A stretch of 64,000 nt of DNA, taken from positions 3,442 to 67,441 of the forward strand of contig CANQQA010000011.1 of assembly GCA_947625885.1 (NCBI GenBank), written 5' to 3'. The notes beneath the pieces are model-generated. The model worked only from the letters and a program-made list of their open reading frames with translations. It had not been told where the DNA came from and made no database searches. Made by a program: the position numbers and the translations under genes. Positions within the stretch are counted from its first letter, which is position 1. Every line of letters starts with the position of its first letter. Shown here one piece after another: positions 1,091-63,372 of this stretch. Source of the stretch: an uncultured Bacteroidales bacterium. GTDB lineage: Bacteria > Bacteroidota > Bacteroidia > Bacteroidales > UBA11471.

Positions 1091-2413
1091 TTATTCATCT
1101 TCGGGGTTTGTAAAAAGTAATTTATTAAATTTAAGTCGTTGTTTGTCGGAGAATTGACCTTGATAGCCCCGCAATATACGGTTGCCTGTCGTATGACCTA
1201 CTGCCCTGTCTATATAGACATCGCTTATACCGTGATGCGTTAGGGTCGTGATAAAACTATTACGGGCGTATTGTGCCGTAATCTCTTTTATTCCCAGCAC
1301 CTCGCAAGCATAAACAATCGAGGTGCGGATTTGGTCGTTAAAGTCGTGGACGCGGCTATTGATTTGCTTCTCCGATTCTGCGTTGCCTATGATAAACGGG
1401 AATACAAGCTGTCCGTCTTGGTAGTCCGATGCGTACTTGTCAATTAATCGCTTTAATTCGGAAATAATCGGCACACGGATAATCGGCATACTATCTAACC
1501 CGTCCCGCGTGGTTTTGCTTCGCTGGAATGTCAATTCTGGCAATGCGTTTTTGTAATCTTTATTCCATCGCAATTTTGCCGCGTCGATACTATTGCACCC
1601 ATTGAGGCAGTAGAGCAATAACCAATAATCGACCGCTCGTTGCACAACCTCACGTTTATTCTCATCCCAATCTGCCGGCGGCACAAAGTCGCGCAGTTTG
1701 ATTATATCCTCAACGTGCAAATAGTTTTCTTCTCTGCGGCGACCTTTCGGAACAGCAATCTTCGGGACGGTCTGTATAATCTCATCCTCTTTGGCTTGAT
1801 TCAGCACAGCCCGCAAAGCACGAAGGTAAATCGAGCGGGTATCTGCGGAGTGTCCTTGCTCTACCATATATTTATCCCATTCTCGAATAATATTCGCTGT
1901 AATCGCTTTTATCGGCATATCCCTATCTCGAAACTGACGGAACTTTGATAATGCCTGCCGATATTGCTCTTTGGTCTTTTGTGCGACCTTTGACTTGCCC
2001 ACGCTATCCCAATAATTAAAAAGCGTGATTTTGAGCGTGATTGAACGCTTTGAATGCCGTTCTTGCAGAACGTTAAGGCTGAATACACCCTGCTTCTCTA
2101 TCTCTTGGACGGAGCGTACAATATCCTCAAACATTCGAATCAACGAGGCTTTCGGCTCATGATTTCGTCGCATACGCAGCAGCCTGTCATACTCTGCAAG
2201 ATTTACTTTCGTGCCAGAACGAAAGTAGGCACGTTGTCGCTGAAATGTTACCCTCACGGCTATCGGAATATTGCCCTGTTCGAGTGTTGCGTGGCGCACA
2301 TCGAGCGTCAGAGATATAAATACGCCGCTCTTTGTCGTTTCTTCGGCAAGCGTATCAATACCCACCCTATGGGCATCGCTGTTACCGTACACCTGTTTTT
2401 CGTTCCAATTCAT
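1091..2413 (-). CDS. Tyrosine-type site-specific recombinase/integrase (Bacteroides phage-integrase type)
   Basis: The C-terminal catalytic region ...ARNSFITTLTHHGISDVYIDRAVGHTTGNRILRGYQG carries the R...HxxR...Y signature. The N-terminal part is arm-binding-like. I chose the internal ATG at 2411-2413 (MNWNEKQVY...) because the upstream extension to 2572 is hydrophobic junk running into the att region. Confidence 0.85.
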   Translation of the reverse strand: MNWNEKQVYGNSDAHRVGIDTLAEETTKSGVFISLTLDVRHATLEQGNIPIAVRVTFQRQRAYFRSGTKVNLAEYDRLLRMRRNHEPKASLIRMFEDIVRSVQEIEKQGVFSLNVLQERHSKRSITLKITLFNYWDSVGKSKVAQKTKEQYRQALSKFRQFRDRDMPIKAITANIIREWDKYMVEQGHSADTRSIYLRALRAVLNQAKEDEIIQTVPKIAVPKGRRREENYLHVEDIIKLRDFVPPADWDENKREVVQRAVDYWLLLYCLNGCNSIDAAKLRWNKDYKNALPELTFQRSKTTRDGLDSMPIIRVPIISELKRLIDKYASDYQDGQLVFPFIIGNAESEKQINSRVHDFNDQIRTSIVYACEVLGIKEITAQYARNSFITTLTHHGISDVYIDRAVGHTTGNRILRGYQGQFSDKQRLKFNKLLFTNPEDE

Positions 2414-2435
2414 ATCGTCAATCGTTAGTATTTCC

Positions 2436-2474
2436 GTGTTCCGTATTCCAAAAAGCGGAACACAAACGGAACAC
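2436..2474. repeat. GTGTTCCG / CGGAACAC / CGGAACAC motif cluster (one inverted copy plus two direct copies) between the integrase start and the att junction
   Basis: GTGTTCCG lies at 2436-2443, and CGGAACAC at 2456-2463 and 2467-2474. The position is typical of integrase arm-type or operator sites. Confidence 0.45.
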
Positions 2475-2560
2475 GCAATCTGAAACAATACAAAATTACA
2501 AAAAACATTTTGATTCGCAAAATATTTATATACAAATAAGTTACACAAAAATATAGAGCT

Positions 2561-2580
2561 AACGAAAAACAACGAAAAAC
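2561..2580 (+). repeat. Perfect tandem 10-mer (AACGAAAAAC x2) at the element/tRNA-fragment junction
   Basis: Read directly: aacgaaaaac aacgaaaaac. Confidence 0.9.
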
Positions 2581-2588
2581 GCTATAAA

Positions 2589-2635
2589 TCTGCTTTGGGA
2601 GCAGGGGGTCGCGGGTTCGAGTCCCGCCACCCCGA
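2589..2635 (+). pseudogene. 3' fragment of tRNA-Pro(UGG), from the anticodon stem to the discriminator; putative att repeat
   Basis: The anticodon stem is tctgc/gcagg and the loop is tTTGGga (U33, anticodon TGG, G37). The variable loop is gggtc. The T arm is gcggg-ttcgagt-cccgc. The acceptor 3' strand is caccccg followed by A73, which implies the bacterial tRNA-Pro C1:G72 pair. The 26 nt upstream (cgaaaaacaacgaaaaacgctataaa) cannot form a D arm or a 5' acceptor strand. Confidence 0.75.
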
Positions 2636-2861
2636 CGAAATCAAAAAGCGTTGATAATCAATAAAACCTCAAAGATTGTCAGCGCTTTTTTAATGTTATA
2701 TATTTTCATTTTTAGACGCACAAATAATACATTTTAATACCATTTACTACATTTGCACACCAATGCGCGTGCAAGATATGTGCAAGGAAAATGATAACAA
2801 TATCGCTTTATTTAGATACCAGAGGAAACAAAAAAGATACCCCGTTAAAAATTGCCCCTCT

Positions 2862-3860
2862 TTAATGCCTATTTTTTATTTCCGTTTCTAATTCTTTCAG
2901 TTGTTCCATATCTTCACAATCTGCCTCAATGGCTTCTCGTCGTTTGCGCCGAGCATTGAATTCCTCATATACTCTATATGCAAATTCTTCCTTTTGACTT
3001 TTCGCAATTGTCCCCGCATTGGAAAGCAACGGTTGATCGTTCGACAATAATATATTATCAACATTTTCTCGCCAAAAATTCATTGTGAGGTCTTTTCGAC
3101 TCTTAACCCTAAATTCGGCAGTTTCCAAGAATATCACTACTAATCGGTTCAAAGAATCCAATTCGTCGTGTGTCAAATAGTTTTTTGCTATAATTACATC
3201 TTGTTTTCGTACTACCGAACCTTTCCAAGAGGTCAGTCCCATATTCGGTGCATCTACATCGGCTCTATTCATAACGATTTCTGCGGAAGTAAGACCAGTT
3301 ACAGCATATAATAATTTATTTTGTGTTTCGGCATAAAACATCTGCGTTGCTTTGTCCGATTTATCATAATCACTGCTCAGAGCAAACAAATCACGCACCT
3401 TTTGATAAAAACGTTTTTCGGACGCTCTAATTTCGCGTATTCGTTCAAGAAGTTCATCGAAATAGTCCGGGCGTCCGTCAGGATTTTTCAAGCGTTCATC
3501 GTCGATTACAAAACCTTTTCGCAAATATTCGGATAGGTTTCTGTTCGCCCATTGGCGAAATTGAACACCACGAATAGAGCGTACGCGAAAGCCCACTGCC
3601 ATAATCATTTCCAAAGAATAGAATTTGACTTGATACGGTTTGCCGTCGGTGGCAGTTGTTAAGTAATTCTTAATAACTGAATCCGGATTTAATTCATTAT
3701 CTTTTAATATGTTACTTATATGCTGGCTAATATTGGGTATTGAGGTGTCAAAAAGTTCTGCTAACTGCCCTTGATTGAGCCAGACCGAGCCATCGCGCGC
3801 CATTAGTGCAACTCGACTTTTTCCGTCAGCAGATTTGTATAGTATTAATTCTTGTGCCAT
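2862..3860 (-). CDS. RhuM-family (virulence-associated) protein
   Basis: The N-terminus LILYKSADGKSRVALMARDGSVWLNQGQLAELFDTSIPNISQHISNI... and the overall length match my memory of RhuM/PF13310-type proteins. It has an ATG start and lies in AT-rich DNA. Confidence 0.7.
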   Translation of the reverse strand: MAQELILYKSADGKSRVALMARDGSVWLNQGQLAELFDTSIPNISQHISNILKDNELNPDSVIKNYLTTATDGKPYQVKFYSLEMIMAVGFRVRSIRGVQFRQWANRNLSEYLRKGFVIDDERLKNPDGRPDYFDELLERIREIRASEKRFYQKVRDLFALSSDYDKSDKATQMFYAETQNKLLYAVTGLTSAEIVMNRADVDAPNMGLTSWKGSVVRKQDVIIAKNYLTHDELDSLNRLVVIFLETAEFRVKSRKDLTMNFWRENVDNILLSNDQPLLSNAGTIAKSQKEEFAYRVYEEFNARRKRREAIEADCEDMEQLKELETEIKNRH

Positions 3861-4227: not shown

Positions 4228-5565
4228 ATGAAAAAAGTTTTCTTCATTTTTTCTATTGTCCTTTGCGCGTTCGCCGCACAAGCGCAGCGCAACGGCGAAA
4301 TCGAAATCATCGACATCGACCCCGCAACGGGCGACAGCGTATATCATGCACCGTCGTCGGTCGTGGTGCTGTACGACACGCGCCCGATATTTCCACGTCG
4401 CAACCCCGCCATGCCGGTCGGCAACCCTCCCACCGACTTGTTCCTGCGTATGGAACGGCAGTTTCAAGACCCGCGCGCCCCGCGCTTCATTCTCATCAAC
4501 CGTAAGGGTACGGCGGCGCTCGGCATCGGCGGATATGTAAAAGGCTCGATGTCGGTCGATTTTCGCGGTATGGCAGACAGCAAAGATTTTATTACCTATA
4601 CCATTCCCACGCCCAATAACCCGGCTCAAAACGGACAATTCCAAATGGACGCTTCGACCTCCCGACTCTTTCTCTCTTTGGTCGGAAACAACCGCATCAT
4701 GGGCAATTACACCGTATATCTCGAAAGCAATTTTCGCGGCGGAAACGGCAGCTACACCCTGCAACTGCGACAAGCCTTCATCGACATGCGGAGCGTAAAA
4801 GCCGGTCTGGCATGGAGTACATTCACCGACGTGGCAGCTTGCCCGCCCACCATCGACTTTCAAGGTCCGTGCGGATTGGTGAGCGCACGCAACGTCATGT
4901 TGCAATATCACCCCTCGCTCGGCAGACACTGGAGCATAGCGGTCGCCGTGGAAGCACCGTCGGCGACGATGACCACACGGTCGCAGCAAAGCGAATACAT
5001 CACCCAGCGTATGCCCGATATTCCGCTTTACCTACAATACGGCTGGGACGAAACAAACAGCCACGTACGGGTGTCGGGCATCTTGCGCGGACTCTCCTAC
5101 CGCAACCTGCTCACCGAAAAGAACAAAATGCAACTCGGCTGGGGCGTGCAACTGAGCGGAGTCGCCAACATATCGCACCGGCTTACGATATATGGCGATG
5201 CCGTTTACGGGAACGGCATCGAAGAGTATATCAACGATTTGGGCGGCTACGGGTTCGACCTCGTGCCGGCAGCATCGGCAGGCAGCCTCACCGCCCCCGC
5301 CGTATGGGGCGCCACCGGCGGCGTACAGGTAAACATCTCACCCCGTATGTTTGCATCGGTATCGTACAGCCAATGCCGTATGTACGACGGCGTACTCGCT
5401 CCCGAAACCTACCGGTATGCCCAATACGTCGTGGGGAACCTTTTCTACAACATTACGAAAGACTGCCAGATAGGCATCGAATATCTTTATGGGCGACGCA
5501 TCGATCGCGACGACAGTAGCGGACATGCCAACCGCCTCAACGCCGCCATACAATACAACTTCTAA
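4228..5565 (+). CDS. Putative outer-membrane beta-barrel porin
   Basis: It has the signal peptide MKKVFFIFSIVLCAFAAQAQ, alternating beta-strand-like sequence, and a C-terminal ...AAIQYNF with terminal Phe typical of OMPs. Confidence 0.6.
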   Translation: MKKVFFIFSIVLCAFAAQAQRNGEIEIIDIDPATGDSVYHAPSSVVVLYDTRPIFPRRNPAMPVGNPPTDLFLRMERQFQDPRAPRFILINRKGTAALGIGGYVKGSMSVDFRGMADSKDFITYTIPTPNNPAQNGQFQMDASTSRLFLSLVGNNRIMGNYTVYLESNFRGGNGSYTLQLRQAFIDMRSVKAGLAWSTFTDVAACPPTIDFQGPCGLVSARNVMLQYHPSLGRHWSIAVAVEAPSATMTTRSQQSEYITQRMPDIPLYLQYGWDETNSHVRVSGILRGLSYRNLLTEKNKMQLGWGVQLSGVANISHRLTIYGDAVYGNGIEEYINDLGGYGFDLVPAASAGSLTAPAVWGATGGVQVNISPRMFASVSYSQCRMYDGVLAPETYRYAQYVVGNLFYNITKDCQIGIEYLYGRRIDRDDSSGHANRLNAAIQYNF

Positions 5566-5732
5566 TCTCCGGATAGCGACTGTCCACACCTCTTTTCTAC
5601 GCAAAAATCCGACAGCATAAGCTGCCGGATTTTTTTGTGCGGTTATTTACATATTAAAATCAAGCTGTTAAAAAATCGTAGTGAAAAAATATTTTAATCT
5701 AAAAAATGTTTTCACGAACAATTATTATTTTT

Positions 5733-5740
5733 TATCTTTG
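5733..5740 (+). promoter_or_regulatory. Bacteroidota -7 promoter box (TAtcTTTG)
   Basis: It matches the TAnnTTTG consensus 59 nt upstream of the ATG at 5799. It lies inside the long version of the ORF, which supports the internal start. Confidence 0.45.
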
Positions 5741-5798
5741 CGCCGATTTATCTGAGTTGCCGTATGATTCTGTAAATTCCATATTAATATATTCCGTC

Positions 5799-6686
5799 AT
5801 GCAAAAAATCATCGCGATTCTTCGGGTTCTACGACTGCATCAGTGGGTAAAAAATGCCTTTGTATTTCTGCCGCTGTTTTTCGTCGGCAACTTGTTCGAT
5901 GCCGGCGAGTTTGTCGTAACGCTGTCGGTATTTTTCGCATTTTCATTTGCCGCAAGTGCTATTTACTGCCTCAACGACATCATCGACATCGAAGCCGACC
6001 GCACCCACCCCAAGAAATGCACACGCCCCTTTGCAAGCGGCATTCTGTCGAAAAATACGGGGTGGACTATCATGGTCTGTCTGCTTATGCTGTCGGGGGC
6101 AGTCGAAATTTTGTTCGGCGGAATACATTTTATTCCTGTATTGTCGGTCATTATAGCATACATCATTCTCAACATCGCCTACTGTCTCAAACTGAAAAGA
6201 GTTGCCATTGCCGACGTATTTATCGTATCATTGGGCTTTGTTTTTCGGATTTTGGCAGGCTCCCTCGCCACCCAAACACCGCTGTCGCACTGGATTGTTT
6301 TGATGACATTCCTGCTGGCTCTCTTTCTGGCGTTTGCCAAGCGTCGGGACGACGTGCTGATTTACAATGAATCGGGCGTAAAAGTACGCAAGAATGTTTC
6401 CCGATTCAATCTTGCTTTTCTCGATGCCTCCATTGTCATCGTTGCCACCATGACAATGGTCTGCTATATCATGTACTCGGTCAGTCCGGAAGTGATGCAG
6501 CGGTTGGGTTCCGAGCATCTGTATGTAACAAGCGTTTTCGTATTGCTGGGTATGCTCCGCTATTTGCAGCGGATTCTGGTCGATGGCGCCAGCGGCAGCC
6601 CGACACAGATTCTGTTGAAAGATCGCTTTATACAATTTACCATTGCCGGCTGGATTGCGGCATTTTGTGTCATCATCTATTTATAG
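5799..6686 (+). CDS. UbiA-family prenyltransferase, decaprenyl-phosphate phosphoribosyltransferase-like
   Basis: LRLHQWVKNAFVFLPLFF... and the Asp-rich motif YCLNDIIDIEADRTHPKK (NDxxDxxxD) are present, and the protein is polytopic. Confidence 0.7.
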   Translation: MQKIIAILRVLRLHQWVKNAFVFLPLFFVGNLFDAGEFVVTLSVFFAFSFAASAIYCLNDIIDIEADRTHPKKCTRPFASGILSKNTGWTIMVCLLMLSGAVEILFGGIHFIPVLSVIIAYIILNIAYCLKLKRVAIADVFIVSLGFVFRILAGSLATQTPLSHWIVLMTFLLALFLAFAKRRDDVLIYNESGVKVRKNVSRFNLAFLDASIVIVATMTMVCYIMYSVSPEVMQRLGSEHLYVTSVFVLLGMLRYLQRILVDGASGSPTQILLKDRFIQFTIAGWIAAFCVIIYL

Positions 6687-6689
6687 GCA

Positions 6690-7274
6690 ATGCGTACGAT
6701 AGCGGCGTTCGACTTCGACGGTACCTTGACGGTGCGAGACACATTTCCGGCATTTATCCGTTTCAGCTGCGGCGTTTGCCGCTTCGTCGCGGGATTCGCA
6801 CTTTTCTCCCCGATATTAGTGGCGATGAAAGCCGGGCTCTACCCCAACTGGAAAGCCAAACAGCGGGTTTTCTCCCATTTCTTCAAGGGAATGCCGGTCG
6901 AACACTTCGACACGCAGTGCGAGGCATTTTGCCGCGAACGGCTGCCTCGTATATTGCGCCATTCGCTGTTACGCACGGTGGCGGAGTATGCCGAGCGGCA
7001 GTATGAATTGTGCATTGTCAGCGCTTCGGTCGATCGCTGGATTCGTCCGTGGGCGGAAACCGTCGGATTCTCCCGATTGCTGTGTACGGAAATCGAAGTC
7101 GAAAACGGCATACTGACCGGACGTTTCACCACGCCGAACTGCTACGGCGCAGAAAAAGTAAACCGGCTGAAAACGGCATATCCCGACCGACAGGAATATC
7201 ATCTGATCGCCTACGGCGACAGTCGCGGCGATCGGGAAATGCTGGCTTATGCAGACGAACATTATTTATTGTAA
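6690..7274 (+). CDS. HAD-IB superfamily phosphatase
   Basis: HAD motif I is AAFDFDGTLT and motif IV is YGDSRGDREML. The gene starts 3 nt after the UbiA-family gene. Confidence 0.75.
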   Translation: MRTIAAFDFDGTLTVRDTFPAFIRFSCGVCRFVAGFALFSPILVAMKAGLYPNWKAKQRVFSHFFKGMPVEHFDTQCEAFCRERLPRILRHSLLRTVAEYAERQYELCIVSASVDRWIRPWAETVGFSRLLCTEIEVENGILTGRFTTPNCYGAEKVNRLKTAYPDRQEYHLIAYGDSRGDREMLAYADEHYLL

Positions 7275-7280
7275 ACGAAT

Positions 7281-7640
7281 ATGATAAACATTTTATTGAT
7301 TTTGGCAAGCGTACTGTTGAACAGTGCGGCTCAGATTCTCATGCGGAAAGGCATGATGGTCGTCGGGGAAGTGCATATCTCCAACGCGATGCAGATGCTG
7401 ATACCGATGATTACCAACATTTGGTTATGGTTGTGTATGGTGTGCTATGCCGTCAGTATTTTCCTGTGGATGGCAGTTTTGTCGAAAGTGGAAGTCAGCT
7501 ATGCGTATCCGTTTTTGAGTGTCGGCTACATTGTCGCCGCCGTTGCCGGATATTATTTTTTCGGCGAAAATATCAGTCTGATCCGAGTCATCGGAATCGG
7601 CGTAATTTGTTTAGGAGTATTTTTAATATCGAGGAGTTAA
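7281..7640 (+). CDS. Small 4-TM EamA/SMR-like membrane protein (ArnE/ArnF-like candidate lipid-linked sugar flippase)
   Basis: It is 119 aa and entirely hydrophobic with about four helices: MINILLILASVLLNSAAQILMRKG...VIGIGVICLGVFLISRS. Confidence 0.6.
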   Translation: MINILLILASVLLNSAAQILMRKGMMVVGEVHISNAMQMLIPMITNIWLWLCMVCYAVSIFLWMAVLSKVEVSYAYPFLSVGYIVAAVAGYYFFGENISLIRVIGIGVICLGVFLISRS

Positions 7641-7641
7641 T

Positions 7642-8615
7642 ATGAAATATTACATTATCGGAGGCAACGGCTTCGTCGGTCGATATTTAGCCAAAGAATT
7701 GGCACGGCTGAATCGGGAAGTCGTAGTATGCGACCTTCAACCCTGTTCGCATGAAATGATTCCCGCCGAATGTACCTACCGGCAAGTGGATATACGCAGT
7801 AAGGAAAGCCTTGAATATCTGTTTGAAAATCAAGGGGGGGGGATTTTATCGTTATAAATCTTGCTGCAAATCAGTATCATACGAAGGTTCCTCGTCGCGC
7901 AAAAGAATATTTTTTCAGCGTCAATACGACAGGAACATCTAATTTGCTGGAAGTAATATACGAAAAAGGCTGTCGAAAATTTCTCATGTTTACAACGGAT
8001 ATGACATACGGCAAACCGGAATATCTGCCGGTGGATACCCGCCACCCGCAACGCCCGTTCGGACCTTACGGAGAGAGCAAGAAAGCGGCGGAGGATATAT
8101 GCCGCCGTTACCGCGAAAAAGGTATGAACATCACCATCATGCGACCGCGAATGATCAACGGTCCCGGACGGACTGGCATCTTGATCAAGCTCTTCAAACT
8201 GATCGACCGGAATCTGCCTGTACCCACCATCGGAAACGGGAAGAACCATTACCAGATGGTTTCGGTATTCGATTGCGTATCGGCTGCCATTGCGGCAATA
8301 GACAAAGGCTTTCCGAACAAGGAGTATAATCTGGGCTCGGAATCGTCGCCCGACATTCGCCATTTGTTGCAGGGCGTAATTCGCGATGCCGGCTCCCACT
8401 CCTTCGTACTGCCTACGCCCGGACGGCTCGTCAAATTCATTCTCGGAATATTCGCCTCGCTCGGAATGCCTATCATGTACAAAGAACAGTATATGATTGC
8501 CGACGAAGAATATGTGCTGGACATTTCCGAAACCGTCCGTGATTTGGATTGGCGCCCCCGCTACAACGACGAAGATATGCTGAAAGAAGCCTATCGAATG
8601 TATAAACAAAAATAG
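7642..8615 (+). pseudogene. NAD-dependent epimerase/dehydratase (SDR) interrupted by a frameshift at a G9 homopolymer
   Basis: The N-terminal Rossmann part (IIGGNGFVGRYL) terminates at the TAA at 7855-7857. The other frame is open from 7842 (DFIVINLAANQYH...) and contains the catalytic YGESK (YxxxK). A G10 or G7 tract would give one ORF of about 324 aa. Confidence 0.8.
7834..7842 (+). repeat. Poly-G (G9) homopolymer inside the SDR epimerase gene
   Basis: Counted directly: caa ggggggggg att. Confidence 0.95.
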
Positions 8616-8622
8616 TATCATT

Positions 8623-10074
8623 ATGAAAAAAACTTATCAATTACTCCTTATTTCCTTCTACGTTTGTTTAGTCGTAGGGACATTCTTTATTCGTCCGGCC
8701 GATGATGATTGGTGGAGCGCAGCTTATCCCAGATTTAATTTTTCAATTACAGATTTGTTGCCTTCCGGAGCTTTTTGGAGACCGATAGAAAATACTCTCG
8801 GCGGAATATTGGCTTATATGCCGATTTTATTTCCATATGTAAATCACTTTTTAGTCATCACACTTTTTACACTATCGGCATGGATTTCATGTAAAATCAT
8901 GCGGATTTGTCGTATTAAAGAAACGATTCGGGAAATTGCATTTTTTGTAATTCTGCTTTCTCCGGCAGGTATGGCAACCTTGTTTTCAGTCGATGCCATC
9001 AATCAAGCAGGAGCGACTCTTTTCGGATTGTTATCAATTTATGCTTATCTGAAAAACAACGGCTGGAAACGGTATGTATATTGGATTTTATGTACGACCG
9101 TAGCTGTATTTTTCAAAGAGTCCGGCATTGCATATTTTATAGCGACACCCTTGTTTGCCCTTGCTTTGAGCAAGCCTGATTGGAAATATCTTTTGTCGAT
9201 AAAGAAATATGGAGCCCCGTTCATAATTGGTATTTTAAGCGCCTGCGTTTATCTGTTTTTCCGTATCATACTTAATAATGGAGAAATTTCATCTGTCGAC
9301 GATGATTCCAACTATGCCATGCACTTCTCTATCGTAAACATCATTAAAAATGCCGGACTCCTCACGGGAAGTGTCTTTTCAACAATCGACCCTCTTGCCA
9401 TATTTTGCCCTCCACGCAATCCGCTAATTGCGGCAATAACGCTTCTCGCCGGACTGCCCATTCTGATATTGACAATTAGTGCCCTGATCAAAGAATTGAG
9501 GCACAATGAGAATATTTTGAAATATGTACTATTAATCCTCGCGATTGTTTGCGTTATGTCTCCACATCTGTTGATGGGACATTGCGGTGAAATGCACGCT
9601 TATTCAATACTGCCTTTATGTATTATCTCGGTTGCGCTAATTTTTGATTCTGTCCTCGCTACGGGAAAAATCTATTTTATTTCACTCGCTCTATATTTCA
9701 TCGCCGCTATGGGTATAGACATTCATAAATTTACGACAATGTACCGTTATAGCTTATTAGGTGAAATTTACGCTACACAAATCGACAAACAATCAACCCG
9801 TATTCCCCAGAACGTATTGATTATCGAATCGCAAAATAATAATATCATAGTTTATTCCGTATTTTACTCATCTTCTCCGAAAAGGTCTTTTCAACAGGGA
9901 GAATATTACCGATGGAAGCATCATTATCATTATCCTCAAAAGATTTATTATGAACCTTTGAATGAAGTACCTACCGATATAGAAATCGAAGAATATATAA
10001 AATCTTATCGTCAAAATTCCATTGATTGCGTATGGCTCATTAATGATACCATAGTTAATGTAATTGAACTATAA
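8623..10074 (+). CDS. Polytopic membrane protein, GT-C-fold (ArnT/PMT-like) glycosyltransferase candidate
   Basis: It is 483 aa with about 11-13 hydrophobic segments. An acidic motif follows TM1 (FFIRPADDDWWSAAYP), as in the first loop of GT-C enzymes. GC is clearly lower than in the flanking genes. Confidence 0.5.
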   Translation: MKKTYQLLLISFYVCLVVGTFFIRPADDDWWSAAYPRFNFSITDLLPSGAFWRPIENTLGGILAYMPILFPYVNHFLVITLFTLSAWISCKIMRICRIKETIREIAFFVILLSPAGMATLFSVDAINQAGATLFGLLSIYAYLKNNGWKRYVYWILCTTVAVFFKESGIAYFIATPLFALALSKPDWKYLLSIKKYGAPFIIGILSACVYLFFRIILNNGEISSVDDDSNYAMHFSIVNIIKNAGLLTGSVFSTIDPLAIFCPPRNPLIAAITLLAGLPILILTISALIKELRHNENILKYVLLILAIVCVMSPHLLMGHCGEMHAYSILPLCIISVALIFDSVLATGKIYFISLALYFIAAMGIDIHKFTTMYRYSLLGEIYATQIDKQSTRIPQNVLIIESQNNNIIVYSVFYSSSPKRSFQQGEYYRWKHHYHYPQKIYYEPLNEVPTDIEIEEYIKSYRQNSIDCVWLINDTIVNVIEL

Positions 10075-10097: not shown

Positions 10098-10136
10098 GAC
10101 GAGCCGCAACAAGGGAAAACCTTGTTGCGGCTCGTC
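10098..10136. terminator. Perfect 17-bp hairpin between convergent genes
   Basis: gacgagccgcaacaagg-gaaaa-ccttgttgcggctcgtc. It has no strong U-tract. Confidence 0.6.
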
Positions 10137-10157
10137 TGATAAATAACGCTTTCACAT

Positions 10158-16569: not shown

Positions 16570-17967
16570 CTACATCTTCAACGTCTGCTCTATTTCTTCC
16601 ACCTGCGCCCGCAGTTTTTTATCTATTTCCACCTGATCGGCTATCGTCTTGCAGGCATAATGCACGGTTGCATGGTCTTTCCCGCCCAACCGCAATCCGA
16701 TATACGATAACGGGTGGTCGGTGTATTTCTTGGAGAGATACATGGAAATCTGCCGCGCCAACGCAATTTCGCGCTTCCGCGTTTTCGATTGCAGCAAGCT
16801 CACTTCCATATTATAATAAGCGCACACCTTCTGTTGTATCAGCTCTATGGTAATCTGCTGTTTGCGCATCTGGACAATCGACGCCAGCACGCATTCCGCC
16901 ATATCTACCGAAATCTCCTTTTTGAGAATAACCGAACGGGCTATCAACGAAGATACGATGCCCTCCAATTCCCGCACATTGGAAACATTTCGCGCAATGG
17001 AGTCGATTACATCGTCGGAGATGACGATGCCGTCTTTTTTCAATTTACTGCGTAAGATGCTTTTCCGCAGTTCGTAGTCGGGACGTTCCACTTCTGCCGA
17101 AAGCCCCCATTTGAATCGCGTAAGCAGGCGTTCCTCCATGCCTTCGAGCGACACCGGCGGACGGTCGGAAGTCAATACCAACTGTTTCCCCGTTTGATGC
17201 AAATGATTGAAAATATGGAAGAATGTATTTTGCGTAGCCGTTTTTCCCGCCAAATCCTGTATGTCATCAATAAGCAATACATCAATACTTTGGTAGAAAT
17301 TGATGAAGTCGTTTACAGTGTTGTTGCGCACGGCATTGGTGAATTGCACCTGAAAGAGATGCGACGAGAGGTAAAGCACGCGCGCCTGAGGATTCAGGGC
17401 TTTCGCCTTTGCCCCGATAGCCTGTATCAAATGGGTCTTACCCACACCCGACTCGCCGTAAAGGAACAGCGGATTGAAAGCGGTTTTTCCGGGCTGTTGG
17501 GCGACGCTTTCGCCGGCTGAACGAGCCAACAGGTTGCTGCTTCCGGCAAGATAATTGTCGAAACTGTAACACGGATTGAGCTGCGAATCGAGTTCTTTAT
17601 ATACAGGCTGTTTGAAAGGATCTGCCACCCGAGTGGGTTCCGTTACGCCTTTGGTGGATTTTTGAGTTTCGGTAGTGGAGCGGAAAGAGACGGTCTCGTT
17701 TGTCTCCGGTTCTTTGACGACAGACGTATGGTAGGACAAGCGAATGTCTTGTCCGAAAACACGCATCAAAGTACGTTGAAGAATATCGGCGAAATGTTCG
17801 TCAAGGTACTCGCAAAAGAATCGAGACGGGACCTGTATTGTCAATTCATTATCGGAGTATCGAAGAGCACGAGTCGGTTCAAACCAAGTTTCGTATTGCT
17901 TTTCCGATATATTATCTCTGATAATGGATAGACAGCGGTCCCATAATGAGACGTAGTCTAACTCCAT
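16570..17967 (-). CDS. dnaA: Chromosomal replication initiator protein DnaA
   Basis: It is 465 aa, with Walker A GESGVGKTHL, Walker B LLIDDIQ, and a C-terminal DNA-binding domain (...GGKDHATVHYACKTI). Confidence 0.95.
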   Translation of the reverse strand: MELDYVSLWDRCLSIIRDNISEKQYETWFEPTRALRYSDNELTIQVPSRFFCEYLDEHFADILQRTLMRVFGQDIRLSYHTSVVKEPETNETVSFRSTTETQKSTKGVTEPTRVADPFKQPVYKELDSQLNPCYSFDNYLAGSSNLLARSAGESVAQQPGKTAFNPLFLYGESGVGKTHLIQAIGAKAKALNPQARVLYLSSHLFQVQFTNAVRNNTVNDFINFYQSIDVLLIDDIQDLAGKTATQNTFFHIFNHLHQTGKQLVLTSDRPPVSLEGMEERLLTRFKWGLSAEVERPDYELRKSILRSKLKKDGIVISDDVIDSIARNVSNVRELEGIVSSLIARSVILKKEISVDMAECVLASIVQMRKQQITIELIQQKVCAYYNMEVSLLQSKTRKREIALARQISMYLSKKYTDHPLSYIGLRLGGKDHATVHYACKTIADQVEIDKKLRAQVEEIEQTLKM

Positions 17968-63173: not shown

Positions 63174-63372
63174 TATAAAAAATTTATATTTCACACAAAA
63201 CGGAGATTTTTTTTTTATCGGAAGCGCCTTTTTTTATTTTTTTTAAGTTTCTTTTCCTTTGTAGATTTATCCGACTATCTTTCTTTTTACACGCCTATTT
63301 CATTAATTATCATGGCGCAAGAATAGTATATATTATATATTTTCACCATCACATTTTTTATAAAAAACTATG

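Follow-up and report, generated by a model that had tools for sequence, protein, structure and literature searches.

We examined a five-gene cassette in a 64,000-nucleotide (nt) stretch of DNA from an uncultured Bacteroidales bacterium (assembly GCA_947625885.1, contig CANQQA010000011.1), the whole of which is referred to below as the window. The cassette extends from about position 5733 to about position 10138 and probably specifies pentofuranose side-chain glycosylation of the 'three-component plus epimerase' kind known from Citrobacter youngae O1/O2. Its genes lie on the forward strand with intergenic gaps of 3, 6, 1 and 7 nt, and were correctly described as tightly packed in an initial annotation of this DNA. 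Judged from their sequences and, for the last protein, from a structural model, they encode a UbiA-family protein (5799–6686, 295 amino acids (aa)), a HAD-IB phosphatase (6690–7274, 194 aa), a four-helix protein of the SMR/EamA type (7281–7640, 119 aa), a GalE-like short-chain dehydrogenase/reductase (SDR; 7642–8615, 324 aa with ten G in the poly-G tract described below) and a polytopic protein with a GT-C fold (8623–10074, 483 aa). The tract, which lies inside the SDR gene (7834–7842), consists of nine G in the window, where the gene is frameshifted (OFF). This is probably the first Bacteroidota example of such a system to be examined, with what appears to be a new GT-C sequence family and a probable homopolymer switch of the epimerase.

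The 'three-component' pentofuranose side-chain systems of C. youngae O1/O2 were described by Kelly, Duong, Nothof, Lowary and Whitfield (PNAS 2024; PMC11127046). In these systems, ORF15, a HAD-UbiA fusion, forms undecaprenyl-P-ribofuranose from phosphoribosyl pyrophosphate (PRPP), ORF14, a four-helix protein resembling EmrE/ArnE, is the presumed flippase, and ORF12, a GT-C enzyme that founded family GT136 and has essential residues D31/E34 beside its first transmembrane helix (TM1), acts in the periplasm, where it transfers the sugar onto the O antigen. The O2 system has in addition a single GalE-like SDR, ORF13, by which the donor is epimerized at C3 to give xylofuranose (Xylf); loss of orf13 separates O1, with ribofuranose (Ribf), from O2, and ORF12 takes both donors. 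In the survey by the same authors, arabinofuranose (Araf) glycans were accompanied by DprE1/E2 homologues and Xylf by ORF13 homologues, some systems had SMR transporters, and one had a separate phosphatase (PMC11127046).

The first gene of the cassette most likely starts at ATG 5799, judging from its orthologues, which begin there, and an identical 295-aa protein is present in a public collection; the longest open reading frame (ORF) extends from 5706. Position 5733, which had initially been taken as the gene start, is not a start codon and coincides with a –7 promoter motif (see below). The protein scored 213.8 bits on NCBIfam model NF008977 (cut-off 234), 200.3 bits on NF008978 (cut-off 207) and 168 bits on a third NCBIfam decaprenyl-phosphate phosphoribosyltransferase model (cut-off 474), compared with at most 32 bits on the models of 4-hydroxybenzoate UbiA, CyoE/heme O, MenA-type and ChlG/chlorophyll prenyltransferases. 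The initial assignment of the protein to the phosphoribosyltransferases, as opposed to the quinone or heme enzymes, was thus borne out, and the motif quoted for it, NDIIDIEADRTHPKK, is present, as is the RPADDDWW motif quoted for the 483-aa protein. The structure of Mycobacterium tuberculosis Rv3806c (PDB 8j8j) matched over the whole length (E = 7e-41), and we mapped 16 functionally important Rv3806c residues, which bind Mg, pyrophosphate, ribose or the 5-phosphate (PMC10994848), onto this alignment. Thirteen were identical (R22, K28, Y70, N73, D74, D77, D81, K87, R90, Y138, K143, R192 and K208), and the remaining three were conservatively replaced (Q135N, Y157F and E195D), Y157F being found also in some mycobacteria. 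In the N-D-xx-D-xxx-D loop, N90, D91, D94 and D98 of the window protein correspond to N73, D74, D77 and D81 of Rv3806c. The phosphoribose contacts of Rv3806c are not common to ordinary UbiA enzymes (PMC10994848). On sequence grounds, the protein is a polyprenyl-phosphate 5-phosphoribosyltransferase (PPPRS, or DPPRS for decaprenyl phosphate). An annotated decaprenyl-phosphate phosphoribosyltransferase that is 32% identical to it was also seen on Lactococcus dairy plasmids (NZ_PP589792.1 and NZ_CP068515.2), where it may serve a pentofuranose modification of a cell-wall polysaccharide.

The second protein matched Pfam PF12710 (2.5e-36) and TIGR01490 (116 bits, over the cut-off), and its HAD motifs are intact (DFDGT at 8–12, SAS at 111 and GDSRGD at 176). 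Its predicted role is removal of the 5-phosphate from polyprenyl-P-ribose-5-P. The 119-aa protein matched EamA (PF00892, 2.3e-8) and Multi_Drug_Res (PF00893, 1.6e-7) in Pfam, and its best named matches in NCBIfam were ArnF (62.5 bits, short of the 99-bit cut-off) and ArnE (39.7 bits). The protein is kept in the cassettes of two relatives described below (L005 and L009; 66–75% identity), and is predicted to be the flippase for polyprenyl-P-pentofuranose.

The fourth gene had been annotated as an SDR epimerase gene, and the product is indeed a GalE-like SDR, but the frameshift at the G9 run had been missed. Translation from ATG 7642 passes through the run at 7834–7842 and ends at TAA 7855–7857 after 71 aa, and the rest of the protein, some 250 codons up to 8615, is encoded in another frame. 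With 7 or 10 G the gene is in frame and encodes an SDR of 323 or 324 aa, and with 9 or 11 G it is out of frame. The full-length protein matched Pfam PF01370 (3.6e-38), contains the motifs GxxGxxG (7–13) and YxxxK (143–147), and has UDP-glucose 4-epimerases as its best PDB matches (3ehe, E = 3e-19); by sequence it is a GalE-like extended SDR epimerase. The best 120 of 745 homologues were 64–98% identical to it, the named hosts among them being Bacteroides, Bacteroidales, Fibromonadaceae and Chitinivibrionia, and in all contexts examined the homologue adjoined UbiA, HAD and SMR genes. The SDR of a Rhizobium cluster (348 aa), the nearest available, was 30% identical (E = 3e-41).

The tract is the only run of G or C of at least 8 nt in the 64 kb. 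The only other long homopolymer in the window is T10 at 63207–63216. Tract lengths of 7, 9, 10 and 11 were found in 11 metagenome samples, in which the flanks were identical to those of the window or ∼98% identical. Among the samples with identical flanks, G9 was found in S1 (in three runs) and S2 (depth 53), G10 in S4 (in two runs) and G11 in S3 and S5. In the ∼98% identical lineage, S7, S8 and S21 contained G10, S9 contained both G10 and G7, and S10 contained both G7 and G9; in these last two samples the two lengths occurred on contigs that also differed by single-nucleotide polymorphisms (SNPs). In S19, position 7833 was changed from A to G with no change in length. The depth of the contigs ranged from 9 to 53.

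The same variation was visible at the protein level: the 90%-identity cluster contains 324-aa full-length proteins together with 71/72-aa N-terminal and 209–227-aa C-terminal fragments, and ON and OFF forms are each found on at least three backgrounds (A17/V17, S35/P35). Of 105 related SDR clusters, 104 lack the tract; the GGG loop that it encodes occurs only in the window lineage, and orthologues have PLAPED or PISADD at this position. On the 3΄ side of the tract, the ORF is free of other lesions, and intact alleles share 98% identity with it. The tract looks like a phase-variation-like switch of the epimerase. The agreement of replicate runs, the recurrence of the change on different backgrounds, the otherwise undamaged ORF and the uniqueness of the tract within the window all speak for repeated slippage and against error or decay. 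A literature search on this point turned up no account of phase variation by homopolymers in Bacteroidales. A separate homopolymer difference was seen between two loci of human-gut Bacteroides sp. (L011, at 6283, and L013), whose cassettes have T9 or T10 in the HAD gene and otherwise 8 mismatches in 4.6 kb; the difference splits the HAD gene in L013, and could reflect a second homopolymer switch or an assembly error.

For the 483-aa protein, no sequence match was found in Pfam, NCBIfam or PDB. A word-indexed homologue search returned only seven matches, and an exhaustive profile search returned 847 cluster representatives. In an alignment of 80 sequences (∼25% identity), D28, D29, P54 and Y210 were invariant, and P25, W52, R53, H75, D124, Q128, K165, E166, R214 and D256 were nearly so. 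An AlphaFold2 (AF2) model computed with this alignment had a pLDDT of 94.6 and a pTM of 0.94, and replaced an earlier model from eight sequences (pLDDT 72, with weak fold matches). When the new model was compared with PDB using Foldseek, the top nine matches were all GT-C proteins (ALG9, ArnT, AglB, STT3, Pmt4, DPY19, Pmt2, EmbB and STT3A); ALG9 had an E-value of 6e-4, and ArnT (5f15; TM-score 0.52/0.48) was the best bacterial structural match. Hits beyond these nine had probabilities below 0.2 and TM-scores near 0.1. The invariant DD pair lies in the loop just after TM1, which is the site of the catalytic acid in GT-C enzymes. According to the model, the protein has a GT-C fold, as the initial annotation had proposed, and we predict that it is a periplasmic pentofuranosyltransferase. 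A BLAST comparison with the Prevotella DUF6080 protein gave no similarity.

Gene fusions connect this family with the phosphatase. In two proteins (P0203 and P0242; 672 and 680 aa), a HAD domain is followed by a domain of the 483-aa family, and in a third (P0221, 1058 aa), an Acyl_transf_3 domain is present in addition, which hints at coupled O-acylation of the same glycan. The HAD domains fused N-terminally to members of the family are 47–49% identical to the HAD protein of the window, and at the sequence level these fusions are a Rosetta-stone link between the two families. Because the HAD domain is attached to the N-terminus, the N-terminus would be cytoplasmic and the DD loop would lie outside.

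We further analyzed the linkage of the five genes in relatives. The gene order of the window, UbiA-HAD-SMR-SDR-polytopic protein, was found again in a 56%-identical relative (L005), in an unannotated 6.6-kb faecal scaffold (L009; MT837543.1, 'UNVERIFIED: Bacteriophage sp.'), in human-gut Bacteroides sp. (L011–L013), where the cassette lies at the end of a GT2/GT4 polysaccharide locus, and in a Bacteroides metagenome-assembled genome (MAG; L024). It is permuted, with an added methyltransferase, in Chitinivibrionia (L014/L015). Because the order recurs in this way, the five-gene arrangement is not a chance grouping. The terminal polytopic gene varies, encoding a member of the 483-aa family, a DUF6044 protein, a 550-aa protein with no family assignment or GtrII. 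Versions that lack the SDR and carry GtrA in place of the SMR protein were found in a gut contig (L001) and in Prevotella oral taxon 299, the latter with DUF6080; the GT-C partner in L001 (479 aa) is a 28%-identical member of the 483-aa family.

Some further features of these loci were noted. The faecal scaffold consists mostly of the UbiA-HAD-SMR-SDR cassette and a DUF6044 protein, no phage genes were seen on it, and its phage label may be wrong; a phage origin of the cassette was also considered, and is not supported, as a scan of IMG/VR with the SDR gave no relative. In the gut contig, a serine resolvase gene lies directly upstream of GT-C(479 aa)-UbiA-HAD-GtrA (L001:6822–10773), and this cassette may be inversion-controlled. 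A plasmid of Chondrinema litorale (Cytophagales, Bacteroidota; L018, NZ_CP111066.1, 7058–12923) carries a canonical cluster of the decaprenyl-phospho-arabinose (DPA) type, comprising a DPPRS 45% identical to that of the window, a DprE1-like FAD oxidoreductase, a 243-aa DprE2-like SDR, an acyltransferase and GT39-family GT-C proteins. Because of this plasmid, both pentofuranose donor routes appear to be represented in Bacteroidota.

The general logic of the initial annotation, in which PRPP and polyprenyl-P yield a lipid-linked sugar that is dephosphorylated, epimerized, flipped and transferred by a periplasmic GT-C enzyme, is well supported by these assignments, and we infer the following route. 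At the cytoplasmic face, the UbiA enzyme would transfer ribose-5-phosphate from PRPP to polyprenyl phosphate, presumably undecaprenyl-P, and the HAD-IB phosphatase would take off the 5-phosphate to give polyprenyl-P-ribofuranose. When its frame is open, the SDR, with its bound NAD, would act as an epimerase on the lipid-linked ribofuranose. By precedent, the product is most likely to be xylofuranose, since the only characterized single-SDR case, C. youngae ORF13, makes the C3 epimer; epimerization at C2, giving arabinofuranose, is less likely. The 119-aa SMR-like protein, presumably as a dimer, would flip the lipid-linked sugar to the periplasmic face, where the 483-aa GT-C protein would move the pentofuranose onto a surface glycan by means of its invariant D28/D29 loop. 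Since the poly-G tract would slip between lengths, cells would stochastically possess (G7, G10) or lack (G9, G11) the epimerase.

A more far-reaching version of this proposal, which we put forward tentatively and consider less likely to be correct than not in its entirety, is that a single lineage alternates the side-chain sugar of its surface glycan between ribofuranose (OFF) and xylo- or arabinofuranose (ON), that the GT-C protein, whose family has neither a Pfam nor a CAZy assignment, represents a new glycosyltransferase family, and that many gut Bacteroidales are decorated in this manner. The alternation is suggested because ORF12 takes both donors in Citrobacter. Alternatively, the premature stop may be polar on the GT-C gene, in which case the modification would be lost or diminished in the OFF state.

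The identity of the epimerized sugar could be different if the single SDR performed the C2 epimerization of DprE1/DprE2, in which case the cassette would be a DPA-like route to polyprenyl-P-D-arabinofuranose, as the initial annotation had framed it. Such a route would share the first two steps (PPPRS and phosphatase), oxidation and re-reduction of C2 is conceivable for an SDR of the GalE type that binds NAD tightly, and nothing in the sequence fixes the regiochemistry. However, all Araf systems in the survey of Kelly et al. have DprE1/E2 homologues, and the Xylf systems have a single SDR. When the whole 64-kb window was searched by tblastn with the DprE1-like and DprE2-like proteins of Chondrinema, no match was obtained at E = 1e-3 or better, in line with the earlier statement that a DprE1-like oxidase is absent; the Chondrinema cluster that does contain such genes is visibly different, with its 243-aa short SDR and GT39-type GT-C enzymes. 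Because DprE1/DprE2 are lacking in the 64 kb, we do not regard the cassette as DPA-like; its phosphatase is also of the HAD rather than the PAP2 type and its flippase SMR-like rather than GtrA. An arabinofuranose product therefore seems unlikely. The cassette does have only one SDR in the place of DprE1/E2, as had been pointed out; this had been seen as a puzzle, but ORF13 of C. youngae O2, which leads to Xylf, is a published precedent (PMC11127046).

We consider it somewhat less probable still that there is no switch, and that the frameshift is a sequencing or assembly error or the mark of a decaying pseudogene in a three-component system that merely adds ribofuranose. Errors are common in homopolymers, the contigs of several assemblies end at the tract, and SDR-less versions of the cassette exist; moreover, the material inspected consisted of contigs. 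Against this, independent runs agree on the length (G9 three times in S1 and G10 twice in S4, at the depths given above), four lengths occur between otherwise identical flanks, and full-length and truncated products each recur on several SNP backgrounds. Neither the intact ORF beyond the tract nor the restriction of this sole long G/C run to one lineage fits with error or decay. A third explanation, that the UbiA enzyme is an ordinary prenyltransferase for quinone, heme O or ether-lipid synthesis and that the cluster makes a membrane lipid or cofactor, is highly improbable. The protein does belong to the Pfam UbiA family and scores slightly below the phosphoribosyltransferase equivalog cut-offs, but its scores on the three phosphoribosyltransferase models (168–214 bits) far exceed those on the UbiA, CyoE, MenA-type and ChlG models, the phosphoribose-binding residues specific to Rv3806c are conserved, and the HAD, SMR flippase, sugar epimerase and GT-C neighbors make sense only for a lipid-linked sugar.

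Several observations weigh against the pentofuranose side-chain system that we favor. Its first enzyme falls just under the NCBIfam equivalog cut-offs, and the evidence on the tract comes from assembled contigs of public runs, aligned with the SDR gene. A BLAST comparison of the HAD protein with the corresponding domain of a HAD-UbiA fusion from Rhizobium gave no similarity, and because of this the protein may be an independent recruitment. Similarly, the 483-aa protein showed no profile similarity to the 658-aa candidate GT-C of Rhizobium CCGE531, one of the examples given by Kelly et al. (hhalign probability 0.2), or to a GtrII-type protein. With the Rhizobium candidate as the only proxy for the ORF12 family, membership of the 483-aa protein in CAZy GT136 is doubtful, and its family appears to be a new GT-C sequence family. 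Relatives of the 483-aa protein were located at seven genome loci, at one of them as a partial match only. At five of these loci (Prevotella, two Segatella copri, Leyella stercorea and a Bacteroidales MAG), the flanks retrieved (up to 8 kb per side) contained no UbiA cassette; the copy of L. stercorea adjoins a Wzy-type polysaccharide locus. No polysaccharide locus adjoins the cassette within the 64-kb window. We found no pentofuranose pathway or pentofuranose glycan for Bacteroidota in the literature, and pentofuranose is missing from the gut glycans of Bacteroidota covered by a 2025 review; within the reach of the searchable literature, the earlier remark that such a pathway had not been characterized in this phylum still holds. 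No biochemistry or glycan structure is on record for the source organism or any Bacteroidota relative.

The boundaries of the cassette were examined at both ends. A motif search of 5561–5810 found a single match to TAnnTTTG (5733–5740, forward strand; TATCTTTG), a putative Bacteroides-type –7 promoter element, which lies downstream of the terminator hairpin (5603–5634) that closes the upstream porin gene and may serve as the cassette promoter. An invertible promoter was also considered for this region and rejected, since only the terminator hairpin and short, weak inverted repeats are found there. At the other end, a GC-rich hairpin (10100–10138; GACGAGCCGCAACAAGG-GAAAA-CCTTGTTGCGGCTCGTC) sits between the convergent GT-C and malQ genes, and is probably a bidirectional terminator and the right end of the cassette. 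In contigs of other metagenomes, the match to the window begins at 5732 and drops at ∼10159, and the cassette therefore behaves as a unit. In more distant metagenomes ('organism A', a bioreactor sample), the cassette is 96–97% identical and similarity falls below the 90% threshold exactly at 5732 and 10159; at the malQ end the sequence is more diverged, with homology still recognizable. Because of this sharp fall in identity, the comparison suggests that the cassette was recently exchanged between related genomes at the same locus. Metatranscriptome contigs span several cassette genes, including the SDR/GT-C junction, which is weak evidence of transcription.

The cassette lies alone between the porin gene and malQ. 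Its G+C content is 0.38–0.51, compared with 0.54–0.57 for the adjacent housekeeping genes, and the flanking chromosomal genes encode a DcaP-like porin, MalQ, NrdJ, DnaA, UvrA, a CHU_C protein of the type IX secretion system (T9SS) and GldB. DnaA of the window is 76% identical to that of a 'Porphyromonadaceae' MAG and 62% identical to that of Coprobacter, and the window sequence is present in rabbit gut metagenomes. The relatives of DnaA, together with the T9SS and GldB genes, place the host in Bacteroidales. The dnaA gene is located at 16570–17967 (reverse strand), and the window is therefore close to the origin of chromosome replication. A stretch of low G+C content (0.35–0.44; 1091–3860, reverse strand) immediately precedes the porin gene and the cassette. 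It encodes a 493-aa integrase-like protein that has a SAM-like domain of the phage-integrase type, as well as a protein of the RhuM family (332 aa), and may be a mobile-element remnant.

If the proposed function is correct, the 'three-component' pentofuranose pathway described in 2024 is extended to a new phylum. It would also gain a HAD-IB phosphatase encoded by a gene of its own, a GT-C sequence family that appears to be new, and proteins in which HAD and GT-C are fused. Because the best 120 SDR relatives are 64–98% identical across the taxa named above, we predict widespread, unrecognized pentofuranose modification. In gut Bacteroidales, the glycans of the cell surface influence susceptibility to phages, recognition by the immune system and colonization, and many of these bacteria would carry a pentofuranose decoration that is absent from the solved Bacteroidota glycans. 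The switch would also turn a difference that is fixed between Citrobacter serotypes O1 and O2 into a reversible antigenic one, and would be a case of phase variation by homopolymer in Bacteroidales, for which invertible promoters are the more familiar mechanism. The poly-G tract of the epimerase would be an unusual control point because it changes the identity of the donor instead of turning a transferase on or off. The enzymes of the cassette are potentially useful in glycoengineering of furanose side chains.

Among known systems, the cassette most resembles that of Citrobacter. In both, a PPPRS of the UbiA type that contains the N-D-xx-D-xxx-D loop is combined with a four-helix EmrE/ArnE-like transporter and a single GalE-like SDR, and the predicted order of reactions is the same; a HAD fold is likewise present in both, that of the window being predicted to act as the 5-phosphatase. 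The GT-C proteins share an acidic residue just after TM1, with D28/D29 placed as D31/E34 of ORF12, and a small C-terminal extramembrane domain. Unlike in Citrobacter, the HAD phosphatase of the window is encoded by a separate HAD-IB gene and is not fused to UbiA, the GT-C protein has 483 aa and lacks a large carbohydrate-binding module (CBM), the cassette stands alone between the porin gene and malQ rather than in an O-antigen locus, the epimerase gene contains a hypervariable poly-G tract, and the host belongs to Bacteroidales.

The actinobacterial DPA pathway (Rv3806c, Rv3807c, DprE1/DprE2, Rv3789 and Emb/Aft) has a homologous first enzyme with a conserved active site (E = 7e-41, as given above), and in both cases a PRPP-derived lipid-linked pentofuranose would be used by GT-C enzymes outside the cytoplasm. 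In contrast, the window has neither the DprE1 FAD oxidase nor a DprE2-type short SDR, its phosphatase is a HAD protein and not a PAP2 protein such as Rv3807c, its transporter is of the SMR type and not GtrA-like as Rv3789 is, and its GT-C protein is unrelated in sequence to the Emb/Aft families. The D-arabinofuranosylation system of Pseudomonas aeruginosa pilin (PsPA7_6246–6249 and TfpW) likewise combines a PPPRS homologue with a GT-C protein in a Gram-negative bacterium, but it has DprE1/E2 homologues and a non-HAD phosphatase, according to the description by Kelly et al. (PMC11127046). The arrangement also resembles that of Gtr O-antigen glucosylation (GtrA, GtrB and the Gtr GT-C) and ArnC/ArnEF/ArnT, in which conserved donor and flippase genes accompany a variable, acceptor-specific GT-C gene; across the relatives of the cassette, members of at least five families are encoded at the terminal position. 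The Gtr and Arn donors are made from a nucleotide sugar by a GT2 synthase, whereas the donor of the window would be made from PRPP by a UbiA-type enzyme.

The known surface variation in Bacteroidales is mainly due to invertible promoters, and homopolymer-controlled contingency genes for glycosylation are known from the lipooligosaccharide (LOS) genes of Campylobacter and Haemophilus. Another such gene, controlled by poly-G, is Neisseria pgtA (PMC2193922). As in these genes, an intragenic poly-G tract that varies in length among genomes identical in other respects determines in which frame a glycan-modifying enzyme is read; unlike in these genes, the probable switch in the window acts on the epimerase of a lipid-linked donor and not on a transferase.

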